From an uncultured Eubacteriales bacterium (GTDB lineage Bacteria > Acidobacteriota > Aminicenantia > Aminicenantales > Aminicenantaceae): a stretch of DNA of 64,000 bases. The stretch spans positions 26,263 through 90,262 of the forward strand of contig CAZWHQ010000010.1 in assembly GCA_964633715.1 (NCBI GenBank). The letters run 5' to 3'. Shown here piece after piece: positions 18,225-31,437 of this stretch. Under the pieces are notes generated by a model that saw nothing but the letters and a program-made list of their open reading frames with translations, had not been told where the DNA came from and did not search any database. Within the stretch, counting starts at the first letter, position 1. Each line of letters starts with the position of its first letter. The translations under genes and the position numbers were made by a program.

Positions 18225-19381
18225 GACTGTTCTCCAAAGGCATAAACTCGGCCATCTTCTGATCCAATAACAACGAGTCCTCCGGCCACAGCAGGACTTC
18301 CGATAATGGCTCCACCGATTTCATAGGACCAGATTTTTTCCCCATCTTTGAGATTCAAGATGTACAGCCTGCCGTCAATCGATCCGAAAATGACTTTATC
18401 GCTCGAAACAACAGGGGATCCGTCTATTTCATCCAAAGTCTGAAATTCCCACAACTTTTCACCTGAATTTCTGTCCACACAGTGCAGATAACCATCACGG
18501 GAGCCAATGATCACCCTGTCTTTCGTGACAGCCGGGGAAGAAAAAAATGGACCGGGATGGTTTTTATCCTCATATGTCCACACGATTTGTTCAGCGATAA
18601 GATCAATAGCCACCAATTGATTATCATAATGGCCAAGATAGGCCAAATTGTCAACAAGAGCGGCCGACCCGGGGATATAGGAACCCGCCCAAACTTCCCC
18701 TGTTTTTGTCCCATCAGAAACAGAGATAATATGAAGGATTTCATCACATCCACCAAAGATGACATGTGTGCCATCTGTGGATGGAGCACCATTGATAAAA
18801 TTTTCAGTTTCATATTCCCAGATGAGTTCTCCCGTGATTGAATTCAAACAATACATCCTATTGTCGTAGCTGCCTACGAGAATCCTTGCTTCTGGATTGT
18901 TTGGACTAATCACCCAATTGGCTGATCCATAAATAGAGCTGCCGCACTTATATCTCCAGAGCTCCTGCCCGGTGAGGGCATCCAAACAAAGGAATTCTCC
19001 ACTCAAATTTCCAATATAGACCGCATCTTGAAACAGAAGTGGCGAGGCTTCGATATCATCTTCTGTGTCAAAGGTCCATATCTGGCGGCCGGTGAGAAAA
19101 TCGAGTGAATAGACTTTTCCATCCGTAGATCCGATATAAACATTCCCGTTGCCGAGGACGGGAGACGAAATGATGTATGACTCTGTATTGAAGGACCAGA
19201 GAAGAGACAGCTCATCCGGGACTTGATCCTCTGCGATCCCGGTCAAGGCTGAATCCCCGCGAAAAATCGGCCAACTCACACTATCCACATCCAAAATCCT
19301 TTCCCCTACATCTTTTTTGGCACACGTGTACACCAGCAGAGGGAGGATCAAAAGAAAAAAAATATATTTAATCTTGCACAT
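18221..19381 (-). CDS. PQQ-like beta-propeller repeat protein, 386 aa, secreted; paralog 3.
   Basis: Signal peptide followed by repeated blade motifs with YxG and GxxDGxxY patterns. The N-terminal WPxWRGP motif of the other paralogs is replaced by WPIFRGD. Confidence 0.7.
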   Translation of the reverse strand: MCKIKYIFFLLILPLLVYTCAKKDVGERILDVDSVSWPIFRGDSALTGIAEDQVPDELSLLWSFNTESYIISSPVLGNGNVYIGSTDGKVYSLDFLTGRQIWTFDTEDDIEASPLLFQDAVYIGNLSGEFLCLDALTGQELWRYKCGSSIYGSANWVISPNNPEARILVGSYDNRMYCLNSITGELIWEYETENFINGAPSTDGTHVIFGGCDEILHIISVSDGTKTGEVWAGSYIPGSAALVDNLAYLGHYDNQLVAIDLIAEQIVWTYEDKNHPGPFFSSPAVTKDRVIIGSRDGYLHCVDRNSGEKLWEFQTLDEIDGSPVVSSDKVIFGSIDGRLYILNLKDGEKIWSYEIGGAIIGSPAVAGGLVVIGSEDGRVYAFGEQS

Positions 19382-19609
19382 AATCTTTTCCCTCTAAGAA
19401 AACATTTGAATCCTTATAAAATAAAAATATAAGCGTAAGGGTGTACAGTGAAAAAGGTGGTATGGAGGCTGAAGCGAGCATGGTTTCCGGTCGAAGACCG
19501 GAAGAGCGAAGCCGGAATCCAGCCGTTGTTCCTCGCTGGGGAAAAACGAGCGTGCCTTTAAGCTGTATTCCCTGAGCATTATTTTTTATTTTATGAGGTC
19601 TTAAATTTT

Positions 19610-21193
19610 TCATTCTTTTGTTCTGTCCAGCCAGGAAAGCGCGGCCGTCGGGCAGGACGTCACGCATTCCTCGGCCACTTTTTCCAATCCTTCGCTGAGC
19701 GGTTTCCCAAACGGCGTGTCCACATGGACATCAAAACCGCGTTTTACAAACGTCAAACCGAGATGTTCTCCTGATTGTTTGGTGATCTGCACACACAAAC
19801 CACATTTGATACATTTTCCCGGTTCATAGATCACAAGATCATGTTGAATAACTTTACTGAGAGTTTTTCGTTGAGAAAAATGGAACCGCCGTTGGTTTGA
19901 ATCGTACTCTTCGGCATACTGCCTCAGCTTGCATGAATTGGATTTCCGGCAGTCACAGCCAAAACAGCGTGAAGACTCCAGAACGGCCTCTTCTTTTGAA
20001 TACCCTATCTCGAATCCACTCCCATATGTTAATCGTTGAAGCTCTTGTGCCTCTTTGAGCAGTTCGGCTGTGTCTTCTTTGCTGATTTTTCCAAGAATGG
20101 AATTAAAATTTCTGGACGGGCCGGTTTGTCTTTCACCTTTGAGAAACCGGTTGGCGGAATCTGCTAGAAATTTTCCATGCGCCGAAGCACGGATGGCCAT
20201 CCGGGATTCTGACACGGCATTCCCTCCGGCAAAAACACCGGGAATACTGGTTTCAAATGTTTTTCGATTTATAGAGATTCCCTTGTTAGACAAGGACAAT
20301 GCTGACCTGCCCAACAGTTCAGGATTAAAGGTCCCAAGAGCCAATACAATCGTTTCATAATCTGATCTTAACTTGTCCCACTGCAGGTCTTTCCCAAGGG
20401 ATCGTTCCAAAAAAAACTTGACTCCCAACTCGGCGATGCGTTCGATCTCAGCATCGAGTACTTTCCTGGGCAACATATCCTCTGAAACTCCGTAACGAAG
20501 TTTACCGCCGGGCAGCGGATTTTGATCATAAATATGACAGGCATGGCCATATTGAGCAAGATAATAGGCCGCAGAAAGACCTGCCGCTCCGGCCCCAAGG
20601 ATAGCCACAGTTTTCCCAGAGCTGGATTTAACATATGGCCGGAAGGGAGAATTTTTAGCCAAATCCACGTCGGCCACATATCGTTTCAGAGAACATATTG
20701 AGACAGAATCATCAAAGGATTTTCTGTGGCACCCTTTTTCACATGGGGCAGAGCAAATCCGTCCCAATATTGCAGGAAGTGCAATATTTTTTTTGACGGT
20801 GATAAGAGCTTCCTCAAACTGCCCGTCTTTAATCTGCCGGATCATAAGTGGAATATTCATCTGGGCCGGACAAGCGCGAAGACAAGGGGCATCACAGTCC
20901 CCAATATGTTCGCTCAACAAAAAATCCAAGGCATCCTTTCTGGCCTCCCTTACCTTTTCGCTGTTTGTTTCGATCTTCAATCCTTCGGATAAAAGGGCCG
21001 AACAGGACGGGATCAACCGGTCCGACTGGATATCGTGAACGACACAGATCATGCACGAGGTCGTGGGATCATATCCCTTAAGATGACACAACGTAGGGAT
21101 GTGAATATCCAAGCCTGCAGCCGCTTCAAGGATCGTGCTATCACTAGGGACAGACACATTCAAATTGTTGATCGTGATGTTGACGTTCTTCAT
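19610..21193 (-). CDS. Fe-S flavoprotein: an N-terminal 2Fe-2S ferredoxin plus a GltD-like NAD(P)H-binding pyridine-nucleotide oxidoreductase. It resembles StnA / glutamate synthase small subunit.
   Basis: N-terminal CHLKGYDPTTSCMICVV is a NuoG-type 2Fe-2S motif. The CDAPCLRACP Fe-S region is followed by the FAD/NAD(P) motif VAILGAGAAGLSAAYY and by GVFAGGNAV. A C-terminal Cys-cluster ferredoxin region follows. Confidence 0.75.
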   Translation of the reverse strand: MKNVNITINNLNVSVPSDSTILEAAAGLDIHIPTLCHLKGYDPTTSCMICVVHDIQSDRLIPSCSALLSEGLKIETNSEKVREARKDALDFLLSEHIGDCDAPCLRACPAQMNIPLMIRQIKDGQFEEALITVKKNIALPAILGRICSAPCEKGCHRKSFDDSVSICSLKRYVADVDLAKNSPFRPYVKSSSGKTVAILGAGAAGLSAAYYLAQYGHACHIYDQNPLPGGKLRYGVSEDMLPRKVLDAEIERIAELGVKFFLERSLGKDLQWDKLRSDYETIVLALGTFNPELLGRSALSLSNKGISINRKTFETSIPGVFAGGNAVSESRMAIRASAHGKFLADSANRFLKGERQTGPSRNFNSILGKISKEDTAELLKEAQELQRLTYGSGFEIGYSKEEAVLESSRCFGCDCRKSNSCKLRQYAEEYDSNQRRFHFSQRKTLSKVIQHDLVIYEPGKCIKCGLCVQITKQSGEHLGLTFVKRGFDVHVDTPFGKPLSEGLEKVAEECVTSCPTAALSWLDRTKE

Positions 21194-23544
21194 AATATTT
21201 TCACAGAATCAGTCTGGCAAACCTGCTTGCATGTCCCACATTTCGTGCATTTGTTTTGGTCGATGATGTGTCTTTGGTAGGGCACCGCTTGAATAGCACT
21301 CACTGGGCATTTCTGTGCACAGATCGTACAGCCTATGCATGACTCGTCAATAGAATATGTTATAAGGGCTGCACAGCGTTTGGCCGGGCACTTACCTTCT
21401 AAGTGGGCCTCATATTCTTCTCTGAAATACTTCAGTGTCGTGAGAACCGGATTTGGTGCTGTTTTCCCCAGCCCGCAGAGACTGCCCTGTTTTGTCTTGA
21501 GGGCGATCTCTTCCAATTTTGCCAGGTCTTTCTCTTGCCCTTTTCCAATACACAGGTCCTCGAGTATCTGAAGCATGTGTTTTGTCCCAATACGGCAGTA
21601 TGTGCACTTTCCACAGGACTGGCTGCAGATAAATTCCATAAAATAGCGGGCGATGTCCACCATGCAGTCCGAGTCGTCCATGACCAAAAGCCCCCCTGAA
21701 CCCATCATGGCACCAACTTTTTTTAGATCCTCATAATCCACACGCGTATGAGCCAATTCGGCTGGAATGCATCCTCCAGACGGCCCCCCGATCTGTACAG
21801 CTTTAAATTCTCTGTTGCTTTCGATACCTCCTCCAATATCCTCGACAATCTCCCGGATCGAGATGCCCATGGGAACTTCGATAAGCCCTCCCCTGGCAAT
21901 TTTCCCTGCCAGGGAAAAGACCTTTGTGCCTTTGCTCTGTGTTGTCCCTAATTTCGCAAATTCATCAGGTCCATTCCGGAAAATCCAGGGAACAGTGGCC
22001 AAAGTTTCACAGTTGTTAACCAGGGTCGAATGGCCCCAGAGCCCCTTTTGCGCAGGATAGGGAGGACGAAAACTTGGATTCCCCCTATGCCCTTCAATGG
22101 AGGCAATGAGTGCGGTTTCTTCCCCGCAGACAAAGGCACCAGCACCCTCCAAAATCTTTAATTCCAGAGAAAAGCCTTTCTCTAAAATATCCAGGCCCAA
22201 CAGCCCTTGTTCGCGGCTTTTTTTGAGCGCCTCTCTAACGCGCCGGACAGCCAGAGGATATTCTGCACGGATATAAAAATACCCTTCATGAGCCCCAACT
22301 GCGTAGGCGGCAAAAATCATGCCTTCGATAACCCGAAAAGGATAGGACTCCAGAATCATGCGGTCCATAAATGCCCCGGGATCACCCTCATCTCCATTGC
22401 AGATGATGAATTTTTTATCGTCTTTAGATTGGCGAACGATGTCCCATTTTTGTCCTGAAGAGAATCCCGCTCCTCCACGGCCTCTTAAGCCGCTGGTTTT
22501 TACACAATTGACTATCTCTTCTGGAGAATAATTGGAAAGACACCTGTCCAGAGCTTCAAATCCTCCTTTTGTGCGATACTCTTCAAGATCAAGAGGATCG
22601 ATCTGGCCAGAATTCTCTGTGGCGATGTGCTGCTGTCTCCCGAGAAAAGCTTGGATCTCCTTGTCCCGCCCATGCAGAGGATGCCGAGTGAATCCATTGG
22701 AATTTGGACTATCAAGAACATTTTCGATAAGTTGATAGGCTGCATTCTTTATGCGCTGAGGGAGAGATTTTGGTTTGTAATGTCTGAGAATGATGTTTTT
22801 GACATCTTCAGGCTGAACACTGTCATAGAGGACCGGCTCTTCACCTTGTGGACTCACTTCAAGAAGTGGTGTCCTGTGACACATGCCCACACATCCAACT
22901 CTTTTGACCTGTGTCTGAATCCCGGTTTCACGAAGGCTTTTTTCCAGCTCCTGCTGCACCCGGCTGCTGCCGCTGGCCACACAGCAGGAACCCAGCCCAA
23001 TCTTTATTTCTCCTCCATTGTTCGGCTTCGATTTCCGAGGGCCAGAGCTTTTTGCAGCCTGTCCCTGATTCAGGAGGAAATCTTTGAGGATATTCCCAAC
23101 CCCATCTGTTTGGACATGCCCATACGTCACATCATCGATCTGTACAACAGGAGCAATCGTACAGCAACCCAAACAGGCAATTTTTTGGACAGTAAATTGA
23201 CTTTTTGGATCGGTATCTCCATCTTCAGGAATATCCAATTCGCGAAGGAACGCATCATATACCAGGCCGGATCCTTTGACATGACAGGCTGTACCTGTAC
23301 ACACACGGATAATATGCTGACCGACAGGGGTATGGCGGAATTGAGAATAAAACGTCGACACTCCAAAAATGTCAGCGAATGTGATGTCTGTTTTTTCGCA
23401 GACCCGCTGGAGGGCCAGCTCTGGAAGATAATTATATTCATTTTGGATGGCATGAAGAAGGGGGATGACAGCGCCATTATTGGATCCGACATCATCGACA
23501 ATCCGGTCAATGAACGAATGGATGCGGTCCTTTTCCAGCTTCAT
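21190..23544 (-). CDS. Fused NuoE-like (2Fe-2S thioredoxin-fold) and NuoF-like (FMN, NADH-binding, 4Fe-4S) subunit with extra ferredoxin domains. It resembles HydB/HndC/StnBC type.
   Basis: The NuoE motif is CTGTACHVKGS. NuoF blocks include NGDEGDPGAFMDR and GAGAFVCGEETALIASIEGHRGNPSFRPPYPAQKGLWGHSTLVNNCET. C-terminal CxxCxxCxxxCP ferredoxin motifs are present. It overlaps the GltD-like gene by 4 bp. Confidence 0.8.
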   Translation of the reverse strand: MKLEKDRIHSFIDRIVDDVGSNNGAVIPLLHAIQNEYNYLPELALQRVCEKTDITFADIFGVSTFYSQFRHTPVGQHIIRVCTGTACHVKGSGLVYDAFLRELDIPEDGDTDPKSQFTVQKIACLGCCTIAPVVQIDDVTYGHVQTDGVGNILKDFLLNQGQAAKSSGPRKSKPNNGGEIKIGLGSCCVASGSSRVQQELEKSLRETGIQTQVKRVGCVGMCHRTPLLEVSPQGEEPVLYDSVQPEDVKNIILRHYKPKSLPQRIKNAAYQLIENVLDSPNSNGFTRHPLHGRDKEIQAFLGRQQHIATENSGQIDPLDLEEYRTKGGFEALDRCLSNYSPEEIVNCVKTSGLRGRGGAGFSSGQKWDIVRQSKDDKKFIICNGDEGDPGAFMDRMILESYPFRVIEGMIFAAYAVGAHEGYFYIRAEYPLAVRRVREALKKSREQGLLGLDILEKGFSLELKILEGAGAFVCGEETALIASIEGHRGNPSFRPPYPAQKGLWGHSTLVNNCETLATVPWIFRNGPDEFAKLGTTQSKGTKVFSLAGKIARGGLIEVPMGISIREIVEDIGGGIESNREFKAVQIGGPSGGCIPAELAHTRVDYEDLKKVGAMMGSGGLLVMDDSDCMVDIARYFMEFICSQSCGKCTYCRIGTKHMLQILEDLCIGKGQEKDLAKLEEIALKTKQGSLCGLGKTAPNPVLTTLKYFREEYEAHLEGKCPAKRCAALITYSIDESCIGCTICAQKCPVSAIQAVPYQRHIIDQNKCTKCGTCKQVCQTDSVKIL

Positions 23545-23550
23545 GGGATT

Positions 23551-25263
23551 TTATTTTCCAATGCAAAACAGATGTTTTATTCCACGAATAAAGATGCGGT
23601 TAAACATGAATGCGGGAATGGTCATGGCATCTTCTCCAAGTTCATTCTGGTTGATGAGTTCGAATTCCTTCTGAGCTTTAAAGATAGACATAACACCGTC
23701 CATATCCATGCAGTATATTTTATCTCCAGCTAAAATAGGGGACGAATAGAAGCCATCATCAAAGTCGTGGAACCAATATCTCTCTCCCGTTTTTGCGTCA
23801 AAGCAGGATACCGTCCCGAAGCTGGTCGGCATAAACACCAGGTCCCCGATAGCCACGGGACTGGAGACTTCGGAGAGGTCGTCGAGGACCTCCCAGACAA
23901 CTTCCGGCGTATCCCCGAGTTTTATCCCCACAAGCCTGGCGTAGTCGTTGACGGCAAACACCATACCGTCGGCATAGGCGGGTGAGGGGGCGACTTCCCC
24001 CATCATACACGCGACACGCCATAACTTCTGCCCGGTCCGTGGATCATGGGACATGACAAAGGGATTGGAGCTGAGGATCAATTCAAACCGGTTCCCCGTG
24101 TCAACAAGAATCGGCGAAGACCAGGAGATCTCCACTTCCCGAGGTTGGTCATACGCGACATCACCCGTTGCCGCCTTTAAACCCAGAACCCGGCCACCGG
24201 TGTTCTGGTCATAGGGGACGATCAGCAGATCCTGGTAGGTGATCAGTGAAGCCGAATGGCCGTAGTGGTTGTCGGGCACACCCAGATTTTTAGCCCAGAT
24301 TCTCTGTCCCTCGAAGTCGAGACAGGCCACATCGCCCGTGGCGAAAAGGGCGAACACCCTCTTTCCATCCGTGGTCATAGTGGGTGCGGCGTATCCCGTG
24401 TCCTGCCCGACATCGGGTTTGCGATCGGGCGTACCGGGGATATCGTTGAGCTCCGACTGCCAGAGAATCTCCCCTGAGTCGGCATCAAAACAGATGACAA
24501 CCTGAGTGTTTCTATCCGCGCCCGATAGGAAGATTTTCTTCCCCCATATAATGGGAGAATTGTACCCAGGGATAGGAATGGGTGTTGTCCAGAGGATGTT
24601 TTCCCCTGAAGTCCCGTCCCAGACGGTAGGAAAAGAGCCATCCGATGCAATTCCTATTCCTCCCGCCCCTCGAAAGCCGGGCCAGTTTGCTTTTTTCTCT
24701 TCTAAACTTGCATAGTCAGAGTCCCCGGAGCCGCCACTCCGGGCGACGCCGATTTTTTTAATTTCCGACTGGGAGAATACTCCGAGCAAAAGAGCGAGGA
24801 CAAACAGACCGACCCCACCAAAAACAATGTATTTTCGGGATAACAGTTTGTTCTCCCAGGTTTTCCCGGCATCGGAATCCGAGTTCAAATCAGGCAGCTG
24901 GGGTTGAAGTGAATGCATAAACTTGAGCGACAGAAGCAGCAACAGAACAAAGGCAAAGAGAAGGTAACTTCCCGTGCGGATTTGCCATTGGTAGGTGAAA
25001 TAGGCTTTCCTGGCCAGAAGATCGAGAGCGCGGATCTGCTCCTTGAGGGCCGTGTCCTGGGGATTGTCCTGAAGCTGGGCGATCAGCTGAGTGATGACCT
25101 CGCTGTTGAGAGGATCGTTGGATTTTGTCTGGAGATAGTTCGCGATCATCAGAACGCTGAGAATTCCGGCACACACCGCTGCAATCACCACAACCTTTTG
25201 GGCAATTCCATACCACAGACGTGTTGGATCTTTTTTTATGGTCTTGTCGTTTTGTCTATTCAT
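23551..25263 (-). CDS. Membrane-anchored PQQ-like beta-propeller repeat protein; paralog 4, with N-terminal TM helices.
   Basis: Contains NILWTTPIPIPGYNSPIIWGKKIFLSGA, and two N-terminal hydrophobic segments. The track start at 25413 would overlap the upstream gene by 146 bp. The ATG at 25263 (MNRQNDK) directly abuts the stop of the NapH-like gene. Confidence 0.65.
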   Translation of the reverse strand: MNRQNDKTIKKDPTRLWYGIAQKVVVIAAVCAGILSVLMIANYLQTKSNDPLNSEVITQLIAQLQDNPQDTALKEQIRALDLLARKAYFTYQWQIRTGSYLLFAFVLLLLLSLKFMHSLQPQLPDLNSDSDAGKTWENKLLSRKYIVFGGVGLFVLALLLGVFSQSEIKKIGVARSGGSGDSDYASLEEKKANWPGFRGAGGIGIASDGSFPTVWDGTSGENILWTTPIPIPGYNSPIIWGKKIFLSGADRNTQVVICFDADSGEILWQSELNDIPGTPDRKPDVGQDTGYAAPTMTTDGKRVFALFATGDVACLDFEGQRIWAKNLGVPDNHYGHSASLITYQDLLIVPYDQNTGGRVLGLKAATGDVAYDQPREVEISWSSPILVDTGNRFELILSSNPFVMSHDPRTGQKLWRVACMMGEVAPSPAYADGMVFAVNDYARLVGIKLGDTPEVVWEVLDDLSEVSSPVAIGDLVFMPTSFGTVSCFDAKTGERYWFHDFDDGFYSSPILAGDKIYCMDMDGVMSIFKAQKEFELINQNELGEDAMTIPAFMFNRIFIRGIKHLFCIGK

Positions 25264-25267
25264 CCCA

Positions 25268-26623
25268 TCAAGCCCTAAACTGTTTGATTTTTTTCTCACC
25301 GGTTCCCAAAGAATCGGCCTGTTCCTGCGTGAGCAGGCCCAGACGCACCTGTTCATACGGACAGTATGAAAAGCACCGGCCACAGCTGAGACAGGAGCCC
25401 TTGTCCACGTCATATTTGAGCTGCCGTTTGCGGCTGAAGAGGCCGATAAACTTCAGACAGATGACGAAACCGATAAAGCCTCCAAGGATCCATCCCCCGG
25501 TTTTGAACTGCTTCTGGATCGCTTTGGCTTCACTAAATAGCTCCTCGGTCGGTTTCCCCGAAGTGCGGAAGGCTTTGGTTTCATCGGTCATTTCTGTGCG
25601 CTGTCCGGAATTTTCGAGTAGAATTTCCTCGGCAAGAGAGACCGTGGCGTGCTGACGCGAAAGAGGAATGTTGAGAAGAGACCCCACCCAACCGGTACCA
25701 AATACCAGAAGCGGCAGGAGAATGAAAACCAGGGCCAAGCGGCGGATGTCCACATCCTTTCCCTTGGAGGGAGGGCCCTCATCGGCTTTTTGGATGGCTC
25801 CAAAGGGACAGGATTCTTCACACAACCGGCAGTTGTTGCACTCATCGGGAGTGATCGATACATGCCGTTTCGACAGGCGGGACATCCAGCTCAAGAGAAC
25901 TCCATAGGGACAGAGGAACCGGCAGTAGGGTCTGGCAATGACCGTCCCCAAAACCAGCATGGACATCCCAAAAATCACCATATTAAAATCCGCACCGAAA
26001 CGGAAAAAACCGATAAAAGGATCGTACTGACAGATGATAAAACCTGTTCCTGTGACCGCAAACAGCACGGCCAACCCCAGGTAGATATAGGGCAGCAGTC
26101 CGAGCACATTTTCCAGGCCTATGGAAACTCGGACAGGTTTGAGAACGACAACGTCCTGAATGGCGCCGAGCGGACAGACCGCCGCACAAAAAGTCCGGCC
26201 GTAAAAAAGCGCCACAAAGAGCGGCAGGATAAAAAAGACGATGACAGATACAGGGATGGCATAGGCGGGATTAAACAACGCCAAACTCACATTCTGGATG
26301 GCCCCGATTGAACAGACACATCCTCTCCTGATAAAGCCAAAGTACACCAGAGAAAACACCATCAGAATAAATATGTTGCGCCGTGATCTCAACTTGTAGG
26401 CAAAATAGGTCGCCAAAAACAACGCGGCCGCCAAAACAAAAATATCGACATACTCCCATACCGTGGCCCGGGGTGAAGGAGAGAGCAGCTCAGGCCGGAC
26501 ATATCCCGATTCAAAATCGGGTTTGGGAAAACGCTCTTGAATCTGAGAGAGGCCGAGGAGAGGGAGAAGCAACAACATCGATCCAAGAAATACTTTCACT
26601 CTGAACTGTCGTCTATTTTTCAT
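25268..26623 (-). CDS. NapH/MauN-family membrane polyferredoxin (4Fe-4S binding integral membrane protein).
   Basis: Two membrane-embedded CxxxCP motifs, CAAVCPLG and CRFLCPYG, are present. Cytoplasmic 4Fe-4S motifs CNNCRLCEESCP and CLSCGRCFSYCP are present. Several TM helices. The start is placed at MKNRRQF, 26623. The track ORF extends to 26839 with a non-signal-like extension. Confidence 0.7.
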   Translation of the reverse strand: MKNRRQFRVKVFLGSMLLLLPLLGLSQIQERFPKPDFESGYVRPELLSPSPRATVWEYVDIFVLAAALFLATYFAYKLRSRRNIFILMVFSLVYFGFIRRGCVCSIGAIQNVSLALFNPAYAIPVSVIVFFILPLFVALFYGRTFCAAVCPLGAIQDVVVLKPVRVSIGLENVLGLLPYIYLGLAVLFAVTGTGFIICQYDPFIGFFRFGADFNMVIFGMSMLVLGTVIARPYCRFLCPYGVLLSWMSRLSKRHVSITPDECNNCRLCEESCPFGAIQKADEGPPSKGKDVDIRRLALVFILLPLLVFGTGWVGSLLNIPLSRQHATVSLAEEILLENSGQRTEMTDETKAFRTSGKPTEELFSEAKAIQKQFKTGGWILGGFIGFVICLKFIGLFSRKRQLKYDVDKGSCLSCGRCFSYCPYEQVRLGLLTQEQADSLGTGEKKIKQFRA

Positions 26624-26634
26624 GGGATGGCACG

Positions 26635-27222
26635 TTATCCTTGGAGATAACTCTGGCTCTCGTCTCCTCTCAGAATATAGGGCCGGCTCGCCGGCACACG
26701 TTTCCACGCTTGAGAAGGACATCTCCGAGCGATCGAACATTCGTTGCAGTTTAAACAGCGGTCGTGTTTGTTCTGCAGATAGAGGGAACCGTTTCCGAAG
26801 GAGGCGCAGCCTTTCACGCATTTTCCGCAACCAATGCACAGTTCCTCGTCGAGGGTGTACTCAAAATAGGGTATTTCCACAAAGCTCCGCGTGATCGCCC
26901 CGGAGGGACAGAGCTGGCTCTCCGCCCCTGTGTCCCTGTCCTTGGCCCCAGGCTGAAGATACCCGCTGCACAAATCACAGTAGCCGCACATGGAAAAGGA
27001 GTGAACACATTTTACCGAAGATTGCGGAAGAACACAGTTGACCGCACACTTTTCACATTGAATGCAGATGTTGGGATCCAACTGCCAGACCATCTCTTCC
27101 GAAGACGACTTGCTGAACAAAATCCCTGCAAGGCCAGCGATAGTCAAACCGGTTATGGAATGAAGGCTCTTCCTGATAAAATCTCTTCGTTTTATCGGAT
27201 TTTTTTGCCCAGTTCTTTTCAT
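26635..27222 (-). CDS. NapG/MauM-family periplasmic ferredoxin with a Tat signal.
   Basis: Tat motif KRRDFIRK plus hydrophobic segment. Four 4Fe-4S cysteine motifs are present: CIQCEKCAVNC, CGYCDLCSGY, CIGCGKCVKGC and CLNCNECSIARRCP. Confidence 0.75.
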   Translation of the reverse strand: MKRTGQKNPIKRRDFIRKSLHSITGLTIAGLAGILFSKSSSEEMVWQLDPNICIQCEKCAVNCVLPQSSVKCVHSFSMCGYCDLCSGYLQPGAKDRDTGAESQLCPSGAITRSFVEIPYFEYTLDEELCIGCGKCVKGCASFGNGSLYLQNKHDRCLNCNECSIARRCPSQAWKRVPASRPYILRGDESQSYLQG

Positions 27223-27476
27223 TTACCCCCCCCAGCTTCCGACAATTTATTCCTTGCCTTTAGGGCTGAAGGTTTCTGGCAGTCAGAGATTTTCGAACAA
27301 TTCCTGCAGGGCAGATCTAAAGAACAGGATTCGCTTTTCCCGGAATTGGCCTGTCCTCTCCACCCCAGAAACAATCCCGAAAAGACGAGACCACTCAAGA
27401 CAACTGCCCTCATACCATCCTTTAAAAAATCACGTCTAGTTTTCACTTTTAATTGATTCCTCATTTGAAATCTCAC
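27219..27476 (-). CDS. Small Tat-signal protein with a Cys-rich C-terminus, about 80 aa, function unknown.
   Basis: Twin-arginine motif TRRDFLK and hydrophobic segment AVVLSGLVFSGLFLGW. Mature part CSLDLPCRNCSKISDC. 4-bp overlap with the NapG-like start. Confidence 0.35.
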   Translation of the reverse strand: MRFQMRNQLKVKTRRDFLKDGMRAVVLSGLVFSGLFLGWRGQANSGKSESCSLDLPCRNCSKISDCQKPSALKARNKLSEAGGGK

Positions 27477-28479
27477 CTTGTTGCTTTTCCTGTTCCTGAT
27501 TTTTTGTAAAAATCCGAACGAGTTTTTGTTTGGGATCCAGAATAAGTATCCTTTGGTCTGAATCCACGGCTAAATCCAGACCAACCGTGCCTTCGATAAA
27601 CTTGTCAGGTCCGGCTACAACGGACACCATCTCTCCAATCTGATTATAGACCTTAACTCTGGCTATCCCTTTTTCACTTGTTACAAAGGATCCATCTTCC
27701 AGAACAATAAAATGCGATGGATTACAGCAACCGCAGAATCCACCTATGTCCATGGAGAATTCTCCCCAAGAAGTCCTGAAACCTCCGTCCAATGTATAAT
27801 TTTCGAGTGAATGCCGGCCGGTGTCGGCTGCCCAGAGAAAACCATCCGGATCGACAGCCACATCGAAATACGGGCTGGGAATGATAAATCCAGGAACATC
27901 TTTGTCCTCGTCTTTCTCCCCAATTCTTTGAAGAAGGTTTCCATCTTTATCAAACTTCCAGACAATCAGATTTCCGGCATCGGCCACAAAGACAAATTTT
28001 TCCGACAGAGCTATCGAAGTGAAAATCGCGCCCGTACTCGGTGATTTCCAATTGGCTTTTTTTGTGCCGGACAAATCATAAACCTCAACAATATCATTCA
28101 TCCCAACATAGACATCACGATTGTTGTCGACTGCCAGACAGTGAACGGATTCGTCCACAGAAAAAGTGGATAAATGGATTCCATCCCTGCTGAAAATGAA
28201 AAATGTATTGTCCCCAGAGACATAGATGTTGTCCTCCGGCCCGACAGCAAGTCCGTAAACATGGGGCAGTTCGAGTGGAATTCGGCCAACCTCAGAAAAA
28301 TGAACAAGACTGGGATCACTCACCTTGAATCGATCTATGTCATATTCAAAAGGATTTTTCTGTTTTCTCAAAGAATTTTCACGGACAGCTCTGTAACCGA
28401 AAAAAAGAATTCCTGCCAAGGAGACAAGAATGATGATCCCCGTCAAAATCTGATTTTGTTTTGAACTGTTTCCTTTCAT
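27436..28479 (-). CDS. NHL-repeat (six-bladed beta-propeller) protein with an N-terminal membrane anchor.
   Basis: N-terminal TM segment ILTGIIILVSLAGILFFGY. Repeated blade motifs such as VYVSGDN, VYVGMND, VFVADAGN and LWAADTG are typical of NHL repeats. Confidence 0.6.
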   Translation of the reverse strand: MKGNSSKQNQILTGIIILVSLAGILFFGYRAVRENSLRKQKNPFEYDIDRFKVSDPSLVHFSEVGRIPLELPHVYGLAVGPEDNIYVSGDNTFFIFSRDGIHLSTFSVDESVHCLAVDNNRDVYVGMNDIVEVYDLSGTKKANWKSPSTGAIFTSIALSEKFVFVADAGNLIVWKFDKDGNLLQRIGEKDEDKDVPGFIIPSPYFDVAVDPDGFLWAADTGRHSLENYTLDGGFRTSWGEFSMDIGGFCGCCNPSHFIVLEDGSFVTSEKGIARVKVYNQIGEMVSVVAGPDKFIEGTVGLDLAVDSDQRILILDPKQKLVRIFTKNQEQEKQQGEISNEESIKSEN

Positions 28480-28487
28480 CGTTTTTC

Positions 28488-29924
28488 CTATTGCGGCCGT
28501 GCTCTCAAATCGATGCAGACCAAGTTGTGTGAATCCCTCGCCAAAAGCTGGCCGCGGACAATGGCTAGAGGCCCCCAGGCATCCACCCCATTGAGCACCT
28601 TGGCCTGCGCAAGCGGTTTGTATTCCGTGGCGCTGGCTTCGAAAACCGTCAATACGCCATCGTCACTCATGACAAAAAACTTGTCGTCGGCCACGATATA
28701 GGGGCCCAGGCCAAAACGGTGGGTTTTCCCGCTCGACCAGATAAAAGAGCTGATGTCATCGGGATTGACACAGACCATCTGGTTGCGGAGCGGCCCCGCA
28801 TCTTTGGGAAGAATCGAAAAGAGATGGCCTTTGTAATAGATGGGCGTCTGTTGCTCCGAGGCCATCCCCTCCTCCGGTTTTACGGACTGAAGGGCTTCGA
28901 CGCTAAAGACATCCCCTTCACGCGTTAACCTCACCATGAGGCTTCCCGCACCGTAGCCCGCCGTTAAGAATACCCTCCCGTCACCGATTGAAACAGGAGA
29001 AGGAGCAATTACGTTGTTGTTCCACAGTGTGGATTCGAACAGAACCTGACCGGCGGAATCCTCTTCCGCAGAGACGCCAATAAAACCGCCAAGGGCACAG
29101 TAGATGTACATCCTAACGCCATGGATGGTAAAGGGTAAAACCGACGAATGAGACATCCCCCATTGGTTTGGATTGGGGACTTCCCATACGATCTCCCCTG
29201 TTTCCAGATCCACTGCAATGAGGAGAGACGAGCCTCCGACTCCAATCACGGCCAGCGAACCGTCGATCAGAGGACACTGGCCGGTATACCAGAGCGGCTC
29301 TGGAGATTCATATTCTCTTTGAAGGTCAATCCCCCATTTAAAATCACCCGTAATCGCGTCTACACACATCACCTGGCATTTAGGGCCGATGGTCACCACA
29401 TATTTGTCTGTCACCGCGGGAACCGTCCGCGACATCCCATGGTTTCTTTTGATGTTGATCTCATAACCCCGCCGCCAGATTTCGGATCCGTCCTCGAAGG
29501 AAAAACAGCGCAGAATATCCGCCCGTTCTTCTTCATCGTAGTCGAGCACATAAATACATCCGTTGGCCACGACAGGACCCGCGTGCCCTTCCCCAAGAGC
29601 GATGGAGTATAAAATATCCGGCCCCGACTCCCCCCAAGAGTGAGATAGAGAAACATTTTCCCTGCTGATGTTGTCGTAGAAGGCACCGCGGAATCTCGGC
29701 CAACTCCCCTGCAAAGTTGAAGGCAGACCTTCGAATGACGTAAACAGGGCTCCAATCTCTACGGCTTCCCCCAGGCTGACAAAACCTTCAGGCCGGTTGT
29801 CCCTGCCCGGAAGGCCCTCGACAAAGTCTTTGACGGGATTGTGGTAAAACCACCAGCTCAAAAGGAACAGGGCAACAAATGCTGTCGCGGTGAAGGTTAT
29901 TCGTTGAAGAGTTTTTTCATTCAT
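28488..29924 (-). CDS. PQQ-like beta-propeller repeat protein; paralog 5, with an N-terminal anchor or signal.
   Basis: N-terminal hydrophobic segment, then repeated propeller blades. Related to the other paralogs but more divergent. It lacks the WPxWRGP motif. Confidence 0.65.
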   Translation of the reverse strand: MNEKTLQRITFTATAFVALFLLSWWFYHNPVKDFVEGLPGRDNRPEGFVSLGEAVEIGALFTSFEGLPSTLQGSWPRFRGAFYDNISRENVSLSHSWGESGPDILYSIALGEGHAGPVVANGCIYVLDYDEEERADILRCFSFEDGSEIWRRGYEINIKRNHGMSRTVPAVTDKYVVTIGPKCQVMCVDAITGDFKWGIDLQREYESPEPLWYTGQCPLIDGSLAVIGVGGSSLLIAVDLETGEIVWEVPNPNQWGMSHSSVLPFTIHGVRMYIYCALGGFIGVSAEEDSAGQVLFESTLWNNNVIAPSPVSIGDGRVFLTAGYGAGSLMVRLTREGDVFSVEALQSVKPEEGMASEQQTPIYYKGHLFSILPKDAGPLRNQMVCVNPDDISSFIWSSGKTHRFGLGPYIVADDKFFVMSDDGVLTVFEASATEYKPLAQAKVLNGVDAWGPLAIVRGQLLARDSHNLVCIDLRARPQ

Positions 29925-30045
29925 CTAACTAAAATTATTATAGCCCATATCCGCATCTCTTTTACACACTAATCCTATTGAATTACTTGAATAATCCAAG
30001 ATGAGTAATAGCGTTTTTTTGTTCGACACTTCAAGTACGCACTCT

Positions 30046-31407
30046 TTATTTCAGGCTTACGGCCACCAGATTGTGCTGGGTTCTGAAGTACAACCTGCCC
30101 TCTGAAATCGCGGGTGTGGCCAGCATTTTTTCATTCATGGAATTGGTCGCAAGGATCTCGAACTCCGGGCCGCCTTTGACAACATACACATTTCCCTCCT
30201 CGCTCGTGAAATACAGGTTTCCGCCGGACGCCACTCCTGAGGCGGCAAAGGCCTCCATCTTGGCCAGTTGCTCTTTGTAGACGGATTCACCCGTTTTCGC
30301 ATCGAAACAATTCAGCAGGCCGTTCCAGTTCATGTTATAGAGATATCCGTCGTAGACAAGAGGGGACGGAATGTAAGCCCCTCCCCGTTTTACACTCCAG
30401 ACAATCTTATCACTGGTAGTGGTGTCGGCATCGAGCGAGATATCTCCCTTCGCATCCAGCTTTATGGCATAAATCGGCGACAGTCGCCCGTGCGCCCCGT
30501 TGATGTACACCAAATCGCCCGCCACCACGGGAGTCGGGATGGGGATGTCTCCGCCGCCTGAAATCTTCCAGATCTCCTTTCCCGTCCGGAAGTCATAACT
30601 TCCGATGTGTTTAAAACCGTTGACAATGATCTGAGTATTTTGTTCGCCGACATAAATCGTTGGGGTGCTCCATGTGGGGTAATCCTCCCGAGGGGTTCGC
30701 CAGAGTTCTTTGCCCGTGGCAGCGTCCAGAGCCGCCAGAAAGGCGGTGTTCAGGGCGTCACACTGAACCACAACCACGCCCTTGTGGATGACGGGCGAAC
30801 TGGCAAATCCCCACTGGGCCGTGGGCATAGTAAAAAAAGCCGAATCCAAAAGCCCAAAATTCTTTTTCCAGAGCAGCTCCCCCTCCATGTCGTAGCAGTA
30901 GAGGCCTTCGGAGCCGAAAAAAGCCACAACGTGCTGCCCATCGGTCGCCGCCGTTGAGTTGGCGTGTGTGGCCATTGGATGGCGTTTGACTTTGGGCACT
31001 CCCTCGTACGCCGTCTTTTCCCAGAGGATCTCTCCGGAATTTTTATCCAGGCAGAAAACCTTCCATGTCTGCACGGAATTATCATAGACAGGAGTGACAC
31101 TCCCATAAAGGCCAGTTTTGAGTTCGGGAGATTCATTTTCACTGACTGCGGTCGTCACAAACAACCTGTCCCCCCAGATAATCGGGCTGGAATGGGCCAA
31201 CCCGGGAATGAGTGTTGTCCACAGGATGTTTTCCCCTGCCTCCCGGTTCCAGGACACAGGAAGAGGCGATCCCTCAACAAATCCGCGGGCGTAAGGGCCT
31301 CGGAAACTCGGCCAGTTTATCCCTTCATCTTTATTCTGGCCCATAGATACAAAACCAGTACACATCAGAATAAATAGGACTAACAAACATCTGTATACTC
31401 TTGACAC
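30046..31407 (-). CDS. PQQ-like beta-propeller repeat protein, secreted; paralog 6.
   Basis: Contains INWPSFRGPYARG and PIIWGDRLFVTTA motifs. The track start, a TTG at 31437, abuts a -10 box. I prefer the GTG at 31407 (MSRVYRCLLVLFILMCTGFVSMG, a clean signal peptide) with AGGAG about 10 nt upstream. Confidence 0.7.
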   Translation of the reverse strand: MSRVYRCLLVLFILMCTGFVSMGQNKDEGINWPSFRGPYARGFVEGSPLPVSWNREAGENILWTTLIPGLAHSSPIIWGDRLFVTTAVSENESPELKTGLYGSVTPVYDNSVQTWKVFCLDKNSGEILWEKTAYEGVPKVKRHPMATHANSTAATDGQHVVAFFGSEGLYCYDMEGELLWKKNFGLLDSAFFTMPTAQWGFASSPVIHKGVVVVQCDALNTAFLAALDAATGKELWRTPREDYPTWSTPTIYVGEQNTQIIVNGFKHIGSYDFRTGKEIWKISGGGDIPIPTPVVAGDLVYINGAHGRLSPIYAIKLDAKGDISLDADTTTSDKIVWSVKRGGAYIPSPLVYDGYLYNMNWNGLLNCFDAKTGESVYKEQLAKMEAFAASGVASGGNLYFTSEEGNVYVVKGGPEFEILATNSMNEKMLATPAISEGRLYFRTQHNLVAVSLK

Positions 31408-31437
31408 TATTGACTCTCTCCTTTGTATAGAACTCAA

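Follow-up and report, generated by a model that had tools for sequence, protein, structure and literature searches.

Gene content of the locus

Nine open reading frames, A to I, occupy the minus strand between positions 19610 and 31437 of the window, the 64,000-nucleotide stretch of DNA analysed here. An initial, sequence-only reading had described nine co-directional genes in this interval. All nine were present and their domains were borne out by HMM searches. Beyond position 19610 the same-strand run extends, via K, L, M, N, O, P and Q, to 8977. The features are listed below.

A, 30046-31437, minus strand: secreted G-type PQQ_2 propeller paralogue; lineage-specific accessory
B, 28488-29924, minus strand: N-terminally membrane-anchored periplasmic 8-bladed PQQ_2-type beta-propeller; core
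C, 27436-28479, minus strand: membrane-anchored periplasmic 6-bladed NHL propeller with GCCNP loop; core
D, 27219-27464/27476, minus strand: small twin-arginine 4-Cys protein; frequent accessory
E, 26635-27222, minus strand: Tat-signal periplasmic polyferredoxin; core
F, 25268-26623, minus strand: polytopic membrane polyferredoxin of the Fer4_5 / NapH-NosR superfamily; core
G, 23551-25263, minus strand: three TM helices and a periplasmic PQQ_2-type propeller; core
H, 21190-23544, minus strand: cytoplasmic fused BfuC-BfuB; core
I, 19610-21193, minus strand: cytoplasmic truncated BfuA of NfnA/StnC type; core
K, 18221-19381, minus strand: lipoprotein-type BamB-like/ACSF4-type 8-bladed propeller; frequently linked
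L, 16938-18224, minus strand: GT4 glycosyltransferase; frequently linked
M, 16265-16954, minus strand: LolD/MacB-type ABC ATPase; frequently linked
N, 12967-16260, minus strand: 1097-aa duplicated FtsX-type permease; frequently linked
O, 11528-12901, minus strand: secreted 'NWPxWRGP' PQQ_2 propeller paralogue
P, 10161-11498, minus strand: secreted 'NWPxWRGP' PQQ_2 propeller paralogue, B-type

Genes F and G start at internal ATG codons, not as the 523-aa GTG ORF and the 620-aa ORF, respectively. Tight packing (11 bp or less, or overlap) is confined to B to I. Briefly, the intervals are 8 bp (B-C), 11 bp (E-F), 4 bp (F-G) and 6 bp (G-H); C overlaps D, and the D-E and H-I overlaps are 4 bp. Junctions this short, 4-11 bp or overlapping, suggest that translation is coupled. 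The gap between A and B is 121 bp, with TATAAT 13 nt 5' of the B ATG. The spacing first claimed, 6 bp or less or small overlaps, is exceeded at A-B, B-C and E-F. Between I and K the gap is 228 bp. Given the A-B and I-K gaps, the run need not all share one transcript.

Conservation across phyla

Synteny was surveyed using 80 homologues of F as the anchor, and counts refer to loci with enough flanking sequence. Neighbourhood conservation had been named as a check by the sequence-only reading. The order B-C-(D)-E-F-G-H-I is kept in essentially all of the 80 loci, which are independent of one another. These represent at least nine phyla: Aminicenantes/Acidobacteriota, KSB1, Latescibacterota, Calditrichota, Bacteroidota, Verrucomicrobiota, Kiritimatiellota, Planctomycetota and Omnitrophota. 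Strict anaerobes are included, as are aerobic Planctomycetota. The core consists of B (53/54 loci), C (54/54), E (67/67), F, G (67/68), H and I. Gene D is frequent; a D-like ORF lies 5' of E in 43/65 loci by a relaxed pattern. It is lacking in about one third of loci and absent from Verrucomicrobiales-type arrangements. Gene A is confined to Aminicenantes-like loci. Hence, of the nine-gene unit originally proposed, B to I stands as a conserved module, whereas A is lineage-specific and the run continues with K-L-M-N.

A priori, chance alone could have placed a NapGH-like pair beside a soluble Nfn/Hnd-like enzyme and BamB-like genes unrelated to either in this genome, but nothing beyond that possibility speaks for it. 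Against this, the order of the seven core genes is unchanged in about 100% of loci from at least nine phyla, at 33-90% protein identity, and in one MAG the module is present twice, as L041 and L064. The synteny data already refute chance juxtaposition, to which we assign a negligible probability. We confirmed that B to I are one conserved module, beyond chance.

All-versus-all clustering of neighbouring ORFs found no further conserved partner, indicating that the module is self-contained. The run had been noted to encode no cytochrome c, molybdopterin or copper protein. Consistent with this, no partner of the cytochrome, molybdopterin, copper or flavinylation kind is conserved around the module loci. 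Similarly, nap, mau or nos genes never adjoin the module in the surveyed loci.

The cytoplasmic pair H and I

Neither H nor I has a predicted TM helix. In Pfam/NCBIfam searches H matched 2Fe-2S_thioredx, Complex1_51K, NADH_4Fe-4S and two Fer4 domains, which agrees with its earlier description as a fused NuoE-NuoF-like subunit. The layout is BfuC (NuoE-like 2Fe-2S) fused to BfuB, the latter comprising a thioredoxin-like 2Fe-2S region, an FMN/NADH site, a 4Fe-4S site and a C-terminal 2x[4Fe-4S] region. The best PDB matches were 9bov_B (734 bits), 9n5u_B NfnB, 8oh5_B and HydB, with E values of 1e-170 to 1e-219 against NfnB, StnB and HydB. Entry 9bov is the Csac Nfn structure, in which 9bov_B is NfnB (PMC11829005). 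H has the full set of Bfu core features, and all its cluster and FMN motifs are kept in 63 orthologues.

Protein I matched Fer2_4, Fer4_20 and an FAD Rossmann domain. It retains the N-terminal 2Fe-2S region, Fer4_20 clusters, FAD Rossmann domain and C-terminal Fe-S region, and aligned to residues 2-313 and 427-670 of 9bov_A and to residues 1-291 and 450-671 of 8oh5_C. Residues 249-404 of NfnB (4ylf_B) have no counterpart in I. Orthologues of I are 474-582 aa long, and the FAD-binding 'GG(D/N)' motif is conserved in part only. Because the NAD(P)H-binding subdomain is missing, NADPH would not be a substrate at the I site. We rejected a Stn/Nfn transhydrogenase since I has neither this subdomain nor the large C-terminal domain. 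The Stn/Nfn/Hnd-type complex suggested earlier is thus retained in part: H-I has a Bfu core and is closest to Stn/NfnABC, but I is without the NADPH subdomain. In Csac NfnABC, the FAD terminates the chain FAD-A7-A6-A3-A2-A1-B1 (PMC11829005).

The membrane protein F and exported proteins E and D

Protein F matched Fer4_5 (48.8 bits, cutoff 22) and Fer4. It has about seven predicted TM segments and is 46-83% identical between phyla; the F and G reading frames overlap in several loci. Invariant motifs are ERFPKPDF, GCVC, two CX3CP, C-YDPF and two CxxCxxCxxxCP. The CxxCxxCxxxCP motifs are separated by a TM hairpin and both are predicted to face the cytoplasm. Conversely, GCVC and C-YDPF are predicted on the periplasmic side. 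Related NapH-like proteins were previously proposed as modular trans-membrane electron relays (PMC8238504).

Protein E has an RRDF motif, Fer4 family matches and 17 Cys in four ferredoxin-type groups. The RRxF motif and every Cys group are at least 90% conserved among 74 sequences. With 16-17 conserved Cys, E plausibly carries 4x[4Fe-4S]. Protein D, of about 81-85 aa, contains TRRDFLK followed by C-x6-C-x2-C-x6-C, with ..P.A; its RR.F and four Cys are kept in 21 orthologues, and the twin-arginine stretch would act as a signal or as an anchor. No Pfam or NCBIfam family matched D. The assignment of E and F to the NapG/MauM and NapH/MauN families was not upheld. Briefly, E had no match to the NapG/MauM model TIGR00397, and F scored 50.6 bits against TIGR02163 napH (cutoff 213) and 42.5 bits against NosR (cutoff 1000).

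The module might instead be coupled to quinone. Here, F would provide a NapH-like quinol/quinone site, with no direct trans-membrane Fe-S relay. The H-I pair would act as an NADH:quinone oxidoreductase, either non-pumping or, like EtfABCX, bifurcating, and the pool of quinol would supply E and the propellers in the way that NapGH supplies NapAB. Membership of F in the Fer4_5/NapH superfamily fits this scheme, and NapH is regarded as a quinol-interacting subunit (PMC8238504). Bfu complexes predicted to reduce quinone exist, such as Nuo-Bfu (PMC9304861). A precedent for NADH bifurcation to menaquinone and ferredoxin is EtfABCX (PMC10734219). However, F falls far under the NapH cutoff and differs from NapH in TM count. 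The extra invariant periplasm-side GCVC and C-YDPF motifs suggest that F has redox centres at both membrane faces. Furthermore, with quinol as the donor there would be no need for H and I, which are kept in 56/56 and 47/49 loci, respectively. We consider quinone coupling unlikely.

The periplasmic propellers

Proteins A, B and G matched Pfam PQQ_2 while C matched NHL. One N-terminal TM helix, with an N-in charge bias, is found in each of B and C, and G has three. The N-in anchors of B, C and G place the propellers outside. As B, C and G are Sec-type anchored, any cofactor would be inserted outside the cytoplasm. Between phyla, B orthologues are 43-79% identical. Eight motifs are invariant (GEGHAGP, KRNHGMSRT, PLWYTGQCP, MSHSS, GYGxGS, SEQQTP, RFGLGP and DAWGP) and all sit in D-to-A or B-to-C loops, that is, on the top face. 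A putative pocket in B or C is deduced from the loops that bear conserved residues; the top face could equally be a protein-protein interface.

The NHL family of C comprises 932 representative clusters at E<=1e-30. The GCCNP vicinal-cysteine motif is present in 146/150 representatives, and no domain fusions occur among the top 150. Protein G defines a second propeller subfamily, with conserved DTGYAAPT, NxYGH and N-terminal membrane region; A groups with it in clustering.

The propellers could also act as electron donors. In that case, one or more would oxidise a periplasmic substrate, in the manner of a quinoprotein, and electrons would pass via E and F to H-I for bifurcation onto NAD+ and ferredoxin. 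Bfu enzymes work in both directions, and the electrons that they bifurcate normally come from a third substrate of mid potential (PMC9304861, PMC11829005), and NapH-like genes adjoin the PQQ alcohol dehydrogenase gene ExaA in 172 genomes (PMC8238504). Conversely, PQQ-dehydrogenase family models scored 18-37 bits against a cutoff of 480, which also tells against the quinoprotein dehydrogenase envisaged initially. None of the module genes encodes a low-potential donor, be it a hydrogenase, a formate dehydrogenase or another enzyme. Propeller chemistry that is PQQ-based or metal-free is far too oxidising for reduction of NAD+ or ferredoxin, and inward electron movement opposes the membrane potential. 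Electron import is, we believe, most improbable.

Linked downstream genes

Gene K encodes a protein with matches to Beta-prop_ACSF4 (Pfam, 210 bits) and PQQ_2, and an N-terminus that ends in a Cys lipobox-like sequence. It occurs in 24/40 loci with enough downstream flank, in changed order (L-K-M) in some Kiritimatiellales. Protein L matched Glycos_transf_1 and Glyco_transf_4, with generic GT4 similarity only in NCBIfam; its gene lies 3' of I or 5' of B in 30 loci. Proteins M and N matched ABC_tran and FtsX; M scored 253 bits for LolD, below cutoff, and the ADOP-type permease match of N was weak. The M-N pair is 3' of the module in Aminicenantes, KSB1, Latescibacterota, Calditrichota and Bacteroidota, and 5' of B in Sedimentisphaerales/Anaerohalosphaeraceae. 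In many lineages K-L-M-N can be counted with the module, though they are missing from about 40% of loci. Proteins O and P matched Pfam PQQ_2, and extra B/P/O-type paralogues (about 25% identity) also lie 5' of B in many other loci.

A hint of envelope biogenesis, over catabolic redox chemistry, comes from the GT4 and ABC genes. Taken further, the propellers may be BamB-like scaffolds or chaperones that assemble or mend a component of the outer envelope together with the glycosyltransferase and the MacB/Lol-type ABC transporter. Reducing power for maturation would be all that the redox chain supplies, for instance by DsbD-like cysteine reduction or CcoG-like metal reduction before insertion. 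Linkage of K-L-M-N in 19-24/40 loci with enough flank, outlasting rearrangement (for instance L-M-N-B... in Sedimentisphaerales), is consistent with this. So too is the module's presence in aerobes and anaerobes alike. The nearest structural neighbours of B are BamB and BamB-like Rv3035; those of C include NHL domains (from SOQ1 and NHLRC2) that adjoin thioredoxin-like domains. However, a complete redox core stands without K-L-M-N within 10 kb in the loci of Verrucomicrobiales, Stieleria, Rhodopirellula and Pirellulaceae. Scores of A, B and G with the BamB models, at 22-56 bits, fall short of the 285 cutoff, and B has invariant polar residues (His, Arg, Glu, Gln, Asp) of catalytic appearance. 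As a housekeeping thiol reductant, a Bfu-type core of some 20 Fe-S clusters would also be very costly. A primary role in envelope biogenesis or maintenance is therefore doubtful.

A proposed electron path and comparison with known systems

No account of this gene cluster was found in the searchable literature, as the sequence-only reading had supposed, and the module looks like an undescribed route for electrons into the cell envelope. We infer a trans-membrane electron conduit from synteny, predicted topology and the domains present. On balance, though not by much, we think it probable that B, C, (D), E, F, G, H and I form one membrane-spanning redox complex carrying NADH electrons out to the propellers. 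This model supposes a physical complex, outward electron flow, use of ferredoxin and a thiol-based terminal reaction. Outward electron movement runs with the membrane potential. This, and the lack of an obvious low-potential periplasmic donor in the module, favours the outward direction.

In the cytoplasm, NADH would be oxidised at the FMN of H, in the Bfu 'flavobicluster' core. Reduced ferredoxin is probably a second electron source, since H retains the C-terminal 2x[4Fe-4S] ferredoxin-docking domain. Occurrence in both strict anaerobes and aerobic Planctomycetota makes a ferredoxin-dependent confurcating mechanism awkward. The Fe-S wire of I would then carry electrons to its terminal FAD. 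Without an NADPH pocket this FAD must swap electrons with another partner, most plausibly the cytoplasmic 2x[4Fe-4S] domain of F. As a NapH/NosR-superfamily protein, F would pass electrons through the membrane to Tat-exported E, plus D where present. The path would end at the propellers B, C and G, most likely with the invariant vicinal Cys-Cys of C as acceptor site; B and G may offer conserved top-face pockets to an envelope substrate. Genes K-L-M-N would be a frequently linked accessory set.

E and F do not belong to the NapG and NapH families but are analogues, or relatives at the superfamily level. Likeness to Stn/Nfn/Hnd systems is limited to the Bfu core; I differs from StnC and NfnA in having neither the NAD(P)H-binding Rossmann subdomain nor the large C-terminal domain. 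Ferredoxin oxidation by H would resemble HydABC and NfnABC in the confurcating direction.

Organisation of the gene run

The nine genes under study, A to I, lie on the minus strand. Internal start codons match the upstream neighbours. Hence, the boundaries of A to I are as listed here. The list continues with the open reading frames (ORFs) past I.

Genes of the run and downstream ORFs (window coordinates, strand, description)
A, 30046-31437, minus, PQQ_2 propeller
B, 28488-29924, minus, PQQ_2 propeller
C, 27436-28479, minus, NHL propeller
D, 27219-27464/27476, minus, small Cys protein
E, 26635-27222, minus, polyferredoxin with a twin-arginine motif
F, 25268-26623, minus, membrane polyferredoxin
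G, 23551-25263, minus, PQQ_2 propeller
H, 21190-23544, minus, fused BfuC-BfuB
I, 19610-21193, minus, NfnA/StnC-like BfuA
K, after the I-K gap, minus, lipoprotein propeller
L, past K, minus, GT4 glycosyltransferase
M, past L, minus, LolD/MacB-type ATPase
N, past M, minus, duplicated FtsX permease of 1097 aa
O and P, 10161-12901, minus, two more propellers
Q, past O and P, minus, FabK/NMO-like gene

All nine minus-strand ORFs noticed in an earlier, sequence-only reading were found between 31437 and 19610. That reading described a tight run ending at 19610. From B to I the junctions are indeed gaps of 4-11 bp or overlaps. However, A and B are 121 bp apart, with TATAAT 13 nt ahead of the ATG of B, and same-strand genes go on past 19610, beyond a 228-bp gap between I and K. 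ORF J (19368-19667, minus strand, 99 aa), which overlaps the end of I, is probably spurious and was treated so; it has no family match and no counterpart in 80 related loci. In the I-K gap (19480-19520, minus strand) an 8-bp stem without mismatches is closed by a TTCG tetraloop (TTCCGGTC-TTCG-GACCGGAA), and no T-run follows it. An internal attenuator, a processing site and a repeat element are all possible readings. In other loci the gap is 7-60 bp only. A 368-aa ORF antisense within H (22627-23733, plus strand) is almost certainly a codon-bias by-product of the opposite strand. Rfam and tRNA scans of the whole window were both empty.

The nearest relatives of the window are Aminicenantes MAGs. 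It is 99.9% identical to a JGI metagenome contig (3300002231 KVRMV2_100016110; locus L001). Despite this identity, comparison of L001 with window positions 17442-38470 gives 18 gap openings, and the L001 gene calls break G into 299 + 194 aa and I into 446 + 74 aa. These indels are probably assembly or sequencing errors in one version. Flanking regions (3188-6246 and 38029-39612) encode an alpha-L-fucosidase with an F5/8 type C domain and two sulfatases with SGSH_C, which fits degradation of sulfated fucose-containing glycans. The host phyla of the module are mostly sulfatase-rich polysaccharide degraders. Elsewhere, the window encodes a KamA-family radical SAM aminomutase-like protein (7075-8967, plus strand; TIGR00238, 329 bits) whose N-terminal extension (~210 aa) is unusually long, three large M14 zinc-carboxypeptidase paralogues (41719-45746 and 50612-52567, minus strand) and a second MacB-type exporter set (HlyD, MacB_PCD/FtsX) with a TonB-dependent receptor (54427-59536). 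The sole haem-type protein noticed in the window is a small cytochrome P460-family protein (47986-48462, plus strand), 16 kb from the module. Its gene is not kept near the module in other loci.

Conservation of the neighbourhood

Using an alignment of F homologues (65-83% identical), we retrieved 80 loci from species-representative genomes. Every window protein was run against these by tblastn. The order B-C-(D)-E-F-G-H-I occurs nearly everywhere. Per-gene counts were restricted to loci with enough flank.

Occurrence of core genes among loci with flank
B, 53/54
C, 54/54
E, 67/67
G, 67/68
H, 56/56
I, 47/49

We exclude chance adjacency as an explanation. Conservation of the neighbourhood is far stronger than the sequence-only reading could know. 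That reading took the nine genes as one module; B to I are conserved, but A is not core and K to N are added at the other end. The loci fall in Aminicenantes/Acidobacteriota, KSB1, Latescibacterota, Calditrichota, Bacteroidota (Perlabentimonas gracilis, Draconibacterium, Tenuifilaceae, Paludibacter), Verrucomicrobiota, Kiritimatiellota (Pontiellaceae isolates), Planctomycetota (Stieleria magnilauensis, Rhodopirellula sp. SM50, Phycisphaerae) and Omnitrophota. In Verrucomicrobiales, C is just upstream on the opposite strand. A small D-like ORF precedes E in 43 of 65 loci, while A is limited to Aminicenantes-like loci. Genes K, L and M are downstream in 19-24 of 40 loci. In Sedimentisphaerales, L-M-N are instead ahead of B. 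Hence, their link to the module survives rearrangement. With such companions in view, the module might be an envelope-biogenesis machine, its redox chain serving maturation only. We consider this possible, at lower probability than the outward electron transfer proposed below.

All-versus-all clustering of 981 neighbouring ORFs from the 80 loci gave no further conserved family. Among the conserved neighbours there was no cytochrome, molybdopterin or copper enzyme, FMN_bind or ApbE, and no protein of the cluster has a CxxCH haem motif. The earlier claim that cytochrome, molybdopterin and copper partners are missing is thus borne out. Likewise, NapA, NosZ and MauA/B were absent from the window ORFs scanned and from the conserved neighbours. 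Consistent with the sequence-only reading, the ferredoxin pair is never adjacent to a canonical nap, mau or nos cluster in the 80 loci.

One MAG, CAZBBA01 ('uncultured Rikenellaceae'), has two complete B-I copies (L041 and L064), each preceded by several extra O/P-type propeller paralogues. This hints at paralogous modules of differing specificity. Aminicenantes-like modules (70-85% identity) also occur in records titled 'uncultured Eubacteriales bacterium' (L002, L006, L007, L010, L012). For these MAGs the label is probably a taxonomic mislabel.

H and I have a Bfu-type core

Profile searches of H identified a NuoE-like 2Fe-2S domain, a thioredoxin-like 2Fe-2S domain, an FMN/NADH domain, NADH_4Fe-4S and two C-terminal Fer4 domains. 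The same searches matched A, B and G to PQQ_2 and C to NHL repeats, so the earlier NuoE/NuoF and PQQ_2 assignments hold. Residues 1-156 of H match 2Fe-2S_thioredx/NuoE (166 bits) and correspond to BfuC. This is fused to BfuB, all domains of which are found in residues 180-784: thioredoxin-like 2Fe-2S, FMN/NADH, NADH_4Fe-4S (B1) and a C-terminal 2x[4Fe-4S] domain (B3/B4). H aligns end to end with NfnB, StnB and HydB. Its top solved relatives are 9bov_B (Caldicellulosiruptor NfnB, 734 bits), 9n5u_B (archaeal NfnB), 8oh5_B, which we take to be StnB of Sporomusa ovata, and several HydB. Ordinary NuoF gives about half the score and lacks the C-terminal ferredoxin domain. The Cys, GRGG and NGDEGDPGAF motifs of H are kept in 63 orthologues, as are the BfuC Cys motifs.

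I contains Fer2_4, Fer4_20, an FAD-type Rossmann motif and a C-terminal Fe-S region. Its top relatives are the corresponding A subunits (9bov_A, 8oh5_C, 9n5u_A). The identity of 9BOV/9BP5 as Caldicellulosiruptor NfnABC was confirmed (PMC11829005). Alignment of I with NfnA (9bov_A) is split: residues 2-312 align with 2-313 and residues 280-518 with 427-670. With T. maritima NfnB (4ylf_B), alignment covers 46-249 and 404-462 of the latter. The segment without counterpart, 249-404, is the NADPH-binding Rossmann subdomain. At 527 aa, I ends at a position equivalent to ~residue 670 of 9bov_A and 8oh5_C. Hence, the C-terminal ~500 residues of NfnA/StnC, a large HydA/Fdh-like domain in proteins of 960-1180 aa, are missing. 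All orthologues of I are 474-582 aa and so truncation is a family trait.

In NfnABC the wire runs FAD-A7-A6-A3-A2-A1-B1, with FAD at the far end accepting hydride from NADPH (PMC11829005). I keeps the Fe-S wire and the GxGxxG FAD-type Rossmann motif but the NADPH pocket is gone. Therefore, the flavin of I must exchange with another partner. Without the NADPH subdomain and the C-terminal domain, I has no third-substrate site of known type. For the same two absences we rejected a Stn/Nfn transhydrogenase. A Hnd hydrogenase was rejected because the H-cluster is lacking: no cluster protein matches the hydrogenase large-domain Pfam, and the hits of FeFe_hydrog models are confined to the N-terminal Fe-S part of I (148 bits, cutoff 765). 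The sequence-only reading had proposed a Stn/Nfn/Hnd-type NAD(P)H module. That type holds at the level of the Bfu core only; the NADPH site is missing. Judged by their sequences, H and I are Bfu-type at the core, and neither transhydrogenase nor hydrogenase.

Membrane and exported Fe-S proteins

Hydropathy and charge bias predict that H and I are cytoplasmic and that the propellers of B, C and G are outside the membrane. Between them would be F, E and D. F has ~7 transmembrane (TM) helices by hydropathy, with a TM hairpin inserted between the ferredoxin motifs. Invariant Cys motifs occur on both faces; these are two CX3CP motifs plus GCVC and C-YDPF. ERFPKPDF and GFIIC[QR]YD serve as a signature of the F family. 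Only the superfamily domain Fer4_5 is passed (48.8 bits, cutoff 22). Scores were far lower than the cutoffs of the NapH/MauN model TIGR02163 (50.6 bits against 213.05), the NapH model NF007013 (48.1 against 234) and the NosR model (42.5 against 1000).

E contains RRDF, and its 17 Cys fall in four ferredoxin-type groups; conservation is 90% or higher throughout. The NapG/MauM model TIGR00397 is absent among its NCBIfam matches at E<=0.01. Likeness to NapG/MauM is limited to the Tat motif and the multi-ferredoxin Cys pattern. The NapG/NapH assignments of the sequence-only reading therefore survive only as Fer4_5 superfamily membership of F; the curated NapH and NapG models failed. We rejected canonical NapGH, MauMN or NosGH/NosR identity, since curated HMM cutoffs were missed and catalytic partners are absent. 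Several of the earlier family assignments need to be lowered to superfamily or analogue.

D reads TRRDFLK, a hydrophobic stretch, then C-x6-C-x2-C-x6-C, and has no family match. The mature part is ~35-40 aa, with four Cys and no conserved Trp. These features make a TTQ/CTQ-type cofactor impossible, and a small subunit of that type was rejected.

The propellers

C belongs to a family of 932 representative clusters (50% identity) at E<=1e-30. The top 150 are all ~310-420 aa, with no fusions, and 146 of them contain F-x-G-C-C-N-P. In an AF2 prediction (pLDDT 82), C folds as a six-bladed NHL propeller. Confidence is low at residues 240-251; they form a flexible loop just N-terminal of GCCNP and including its first Gly-Cys. 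Extra Lys/Arg after the TM helix of the window protein led us to consider a cytoplasmic C. This was rejected because, across the family, the N-terminal flank is more positive. Tat-like or cleavable signals in some members also count against it. P0375 and P0500 are representatives in which a Tat-like signal (SRRIFLRRG) or a cleavable signal peptide stands in place of the TM anchor. Proteins with a Tat signal would be expected to leave the cytoplasm folded, possibly with a cofactor already loaded. We also rejected C as a clade III (lactonase-type) NosZ. Only 2-3 His are conserved, compared with the multi-histidine CuZ ligand set, and the reported hosts (Nitrospirota, Nitrospinota, Desulfobacterota, Myxococcota, Pseudomonadota) differ from the phyla of the module.

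B is 43-79% identical across phyla. All eight of its invariant motifs map to D-to-A or B-to-C loops in the DSSP strand order. This secondary structure would place them on the top face, where they surround the central channel. Scores against the PQQ-dehydrogenase models TIGR03075/TIGR03074 (cutoff 480) were 35.6 bits for A, 17.9 for B, 36.5 for G and 102 for K. These four proteins share only the fold with PQQ-dependent alcohol/glucose dehydrogenases. A quinoprotein-type dehydrogenase, an option in the sequence-only reading, gains no support from the 17.9-36.5 bits for A, B and G. The BamB models TIGR03300/NF008351 (cutoff 285) gave 55.8 (A), 21.7 (B), 52.7 (G) and 153.6 bits (K). Unlike lipoprotein BamB, B and G are anchored in the inner membrane by TM helices, according to hydropathy. 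The periplasmic propellers look like enzymes or specific partners rather than generic scaffolds. Tandem secreted propeller paralogues with 'NWPxWRGP' are found at 10161-12901 of the window and upstream of B in many loci (for example L026, L033, L038 and L041). The tandem paralogues are ~25% identical to B or G and fall in two subfamilies, B/P-type and G/A/O-type.

A proposed route for electrons

We suggest that H oxidises NADH. It probably also takes electrons from reduced ferredoxin, because the B3/B4 ferredoxin-docking domain is kept. Electrons would pass from H to I and then to the cytoplasmic ferredoxin domain of F. With Cys motifs on both faces, F would carry them over the membrane to Tat-exported E (and D) and so to B, C and G. 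The likeliest terminal acceptor would be the vicinal cysteines of C. Two points favour outward flow in our reasoning: it follows the membrane potential, and the module encodes no periplasmic enzyme that could donate low-potential electrons. The reverse, a periplasmic dehydrogenase feeding electrons inward, is possible but has a lower probability. Outward flow leads to a tentative proposal, which we hold as possible rather than probable. The module may be the first Bfu-type complex with a trans-membrane Fe-S relay as its third module. Electrons from NADH and reduced ferredoxin would be pooled in it and sent out at low potential to new membrane-anchored, cofactor-poor propeller reductases, with a centre including the GCCNP Cys-Cys.

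The seven-gene core keeps its synteny from Acidobacteriota to Planctomycetota and Bacteroidota. Its hosts Aminicenantes, Latescibacterota, KSB1, Calditrichota and Kiritimatiellales dominate anoxic sediments. If true, the wiring would add a new 'third module' to the Bfu family, which may match a clade left unassigned in 2022, and a cytoplasmic donor to the NapH-like relay class. It would also give an enzymatic role to the 'PQQ-like/BamB-like' propellers of PVC/FCB bacteria, which form very large, unannotated families. The Bfu-relay reading, if true, would further mean a new envelope-directed electron sink or reductase common to the FCB group, PVC group and Acidobacteriota, whose hosts include many abundant sediment polysaccharide degraders. 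Cultured strains with the module exist (Stieleria magnilauensis, Rhodopirellula sp. SM50, Perlabentimonas gracilis, Pontiellaceae isolates). Hence, the hypothesis is directly testable. The sequence-only reading held the combination to be undescribed; searchable literature likewise yielded no description of the cluster, nor any role of its propellers. The appeal of the module is that known kinds of parts are newly combined, with breadth, a self-contained architecture and testability in cultured hosts.

Comparison with known systems

H has the complete BfuC + BfuB core of NfnABC/Stn and BfuABC (HydABC etc.), but here BfuC and BfuB are fused. From the N-terminal 2Fe-2S through the Fer4_20 clusters and FAD domain to the next Fe-S region, I is like NfnA/StnC; it lacks the NADPH subdomain and the C-terminal HydA/Fdh-like domain, which accounts for about half of NfnA/StnC. 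Unlike BfuABC, the pair always comes with a membrane polyferredoxin, a Tat ferredoxin and periplasmic propellers. The idea that the third module of Bfu enzymes varies, and may even be membrane-bound, already exists. A survey of the family described no member of the present kind and left 17-18 BfuB clades unassigned (PMC9304861).

NapGH (periplasmic nitrate reductase) and NosGH (clade II nos clusters) likewise combine a Tat-exported multi-[4Fe-4S] ferredoxin with a polytopic membrane protein having two CX3CP and two cytoplasmic ferredoxin motifs. In both, the pair serves a periplasmic enzyme, as proposed here. For Nos this enzyme is a beta-propeller with an ABC-type accessory system, resembling the module. 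However, E has no NapG/MauM match and F is far under the NapH cutoff, with its ~7 TM helices, the hairpin splitting its ferredoxin motifs and extra invariant Cys motifs. NapA/B, NosZ and cytochromes are absent from the module, and the conserved His of C are too few for a CuZ-type site. A quinone-coupled, NapGH-like arrangement would draw on the shared architecture, and we consider it possible. It has a lower probability than the relay proposed above. The predicted electron source here is a dedicated NADH flavoprotein, not quinol.

Fer4_5 membrane Fe-S (NapH-like) proteins have been proposed as modular trans-membrane relays to varied extracytosolic oxidoreductases (Meheust et al. 2021, PMC8238504). 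F shares this relay concept with flavinylated NapH-like systems (NosR, PceC/RdhC). Unlike these, the module and its conserved neighbours have no FMN_bind or ApbE. A Tat polyferredoxin replaces the flavinylated domain and a cytoplasmic Bfu-type donor would be hard-wired to the relay. MauM/MauN with methylamine dehydrogenase is alike in its ferredoxin pair, propeller subunit and small Cys-rich subunit with a twin-arginine-type leader. However, other mau genes are absent and the MauM/N family models failed.

DsbD/CcdA and MsrPQ are functional analogues only, with no relationship of sequence or fold. In them, reducing power from the cytoplasm or membrane is passed outward to periplasmic proteins that reduce thiols or sulfoxides, and the invariant vicinal cysteines of C would suit such an acceptor role. 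Whereas those systems run on thioredoxin and cysteine relays, or on quinol and haem b, the module would use an Fe-S chain fed by an NADH flavoprotein.
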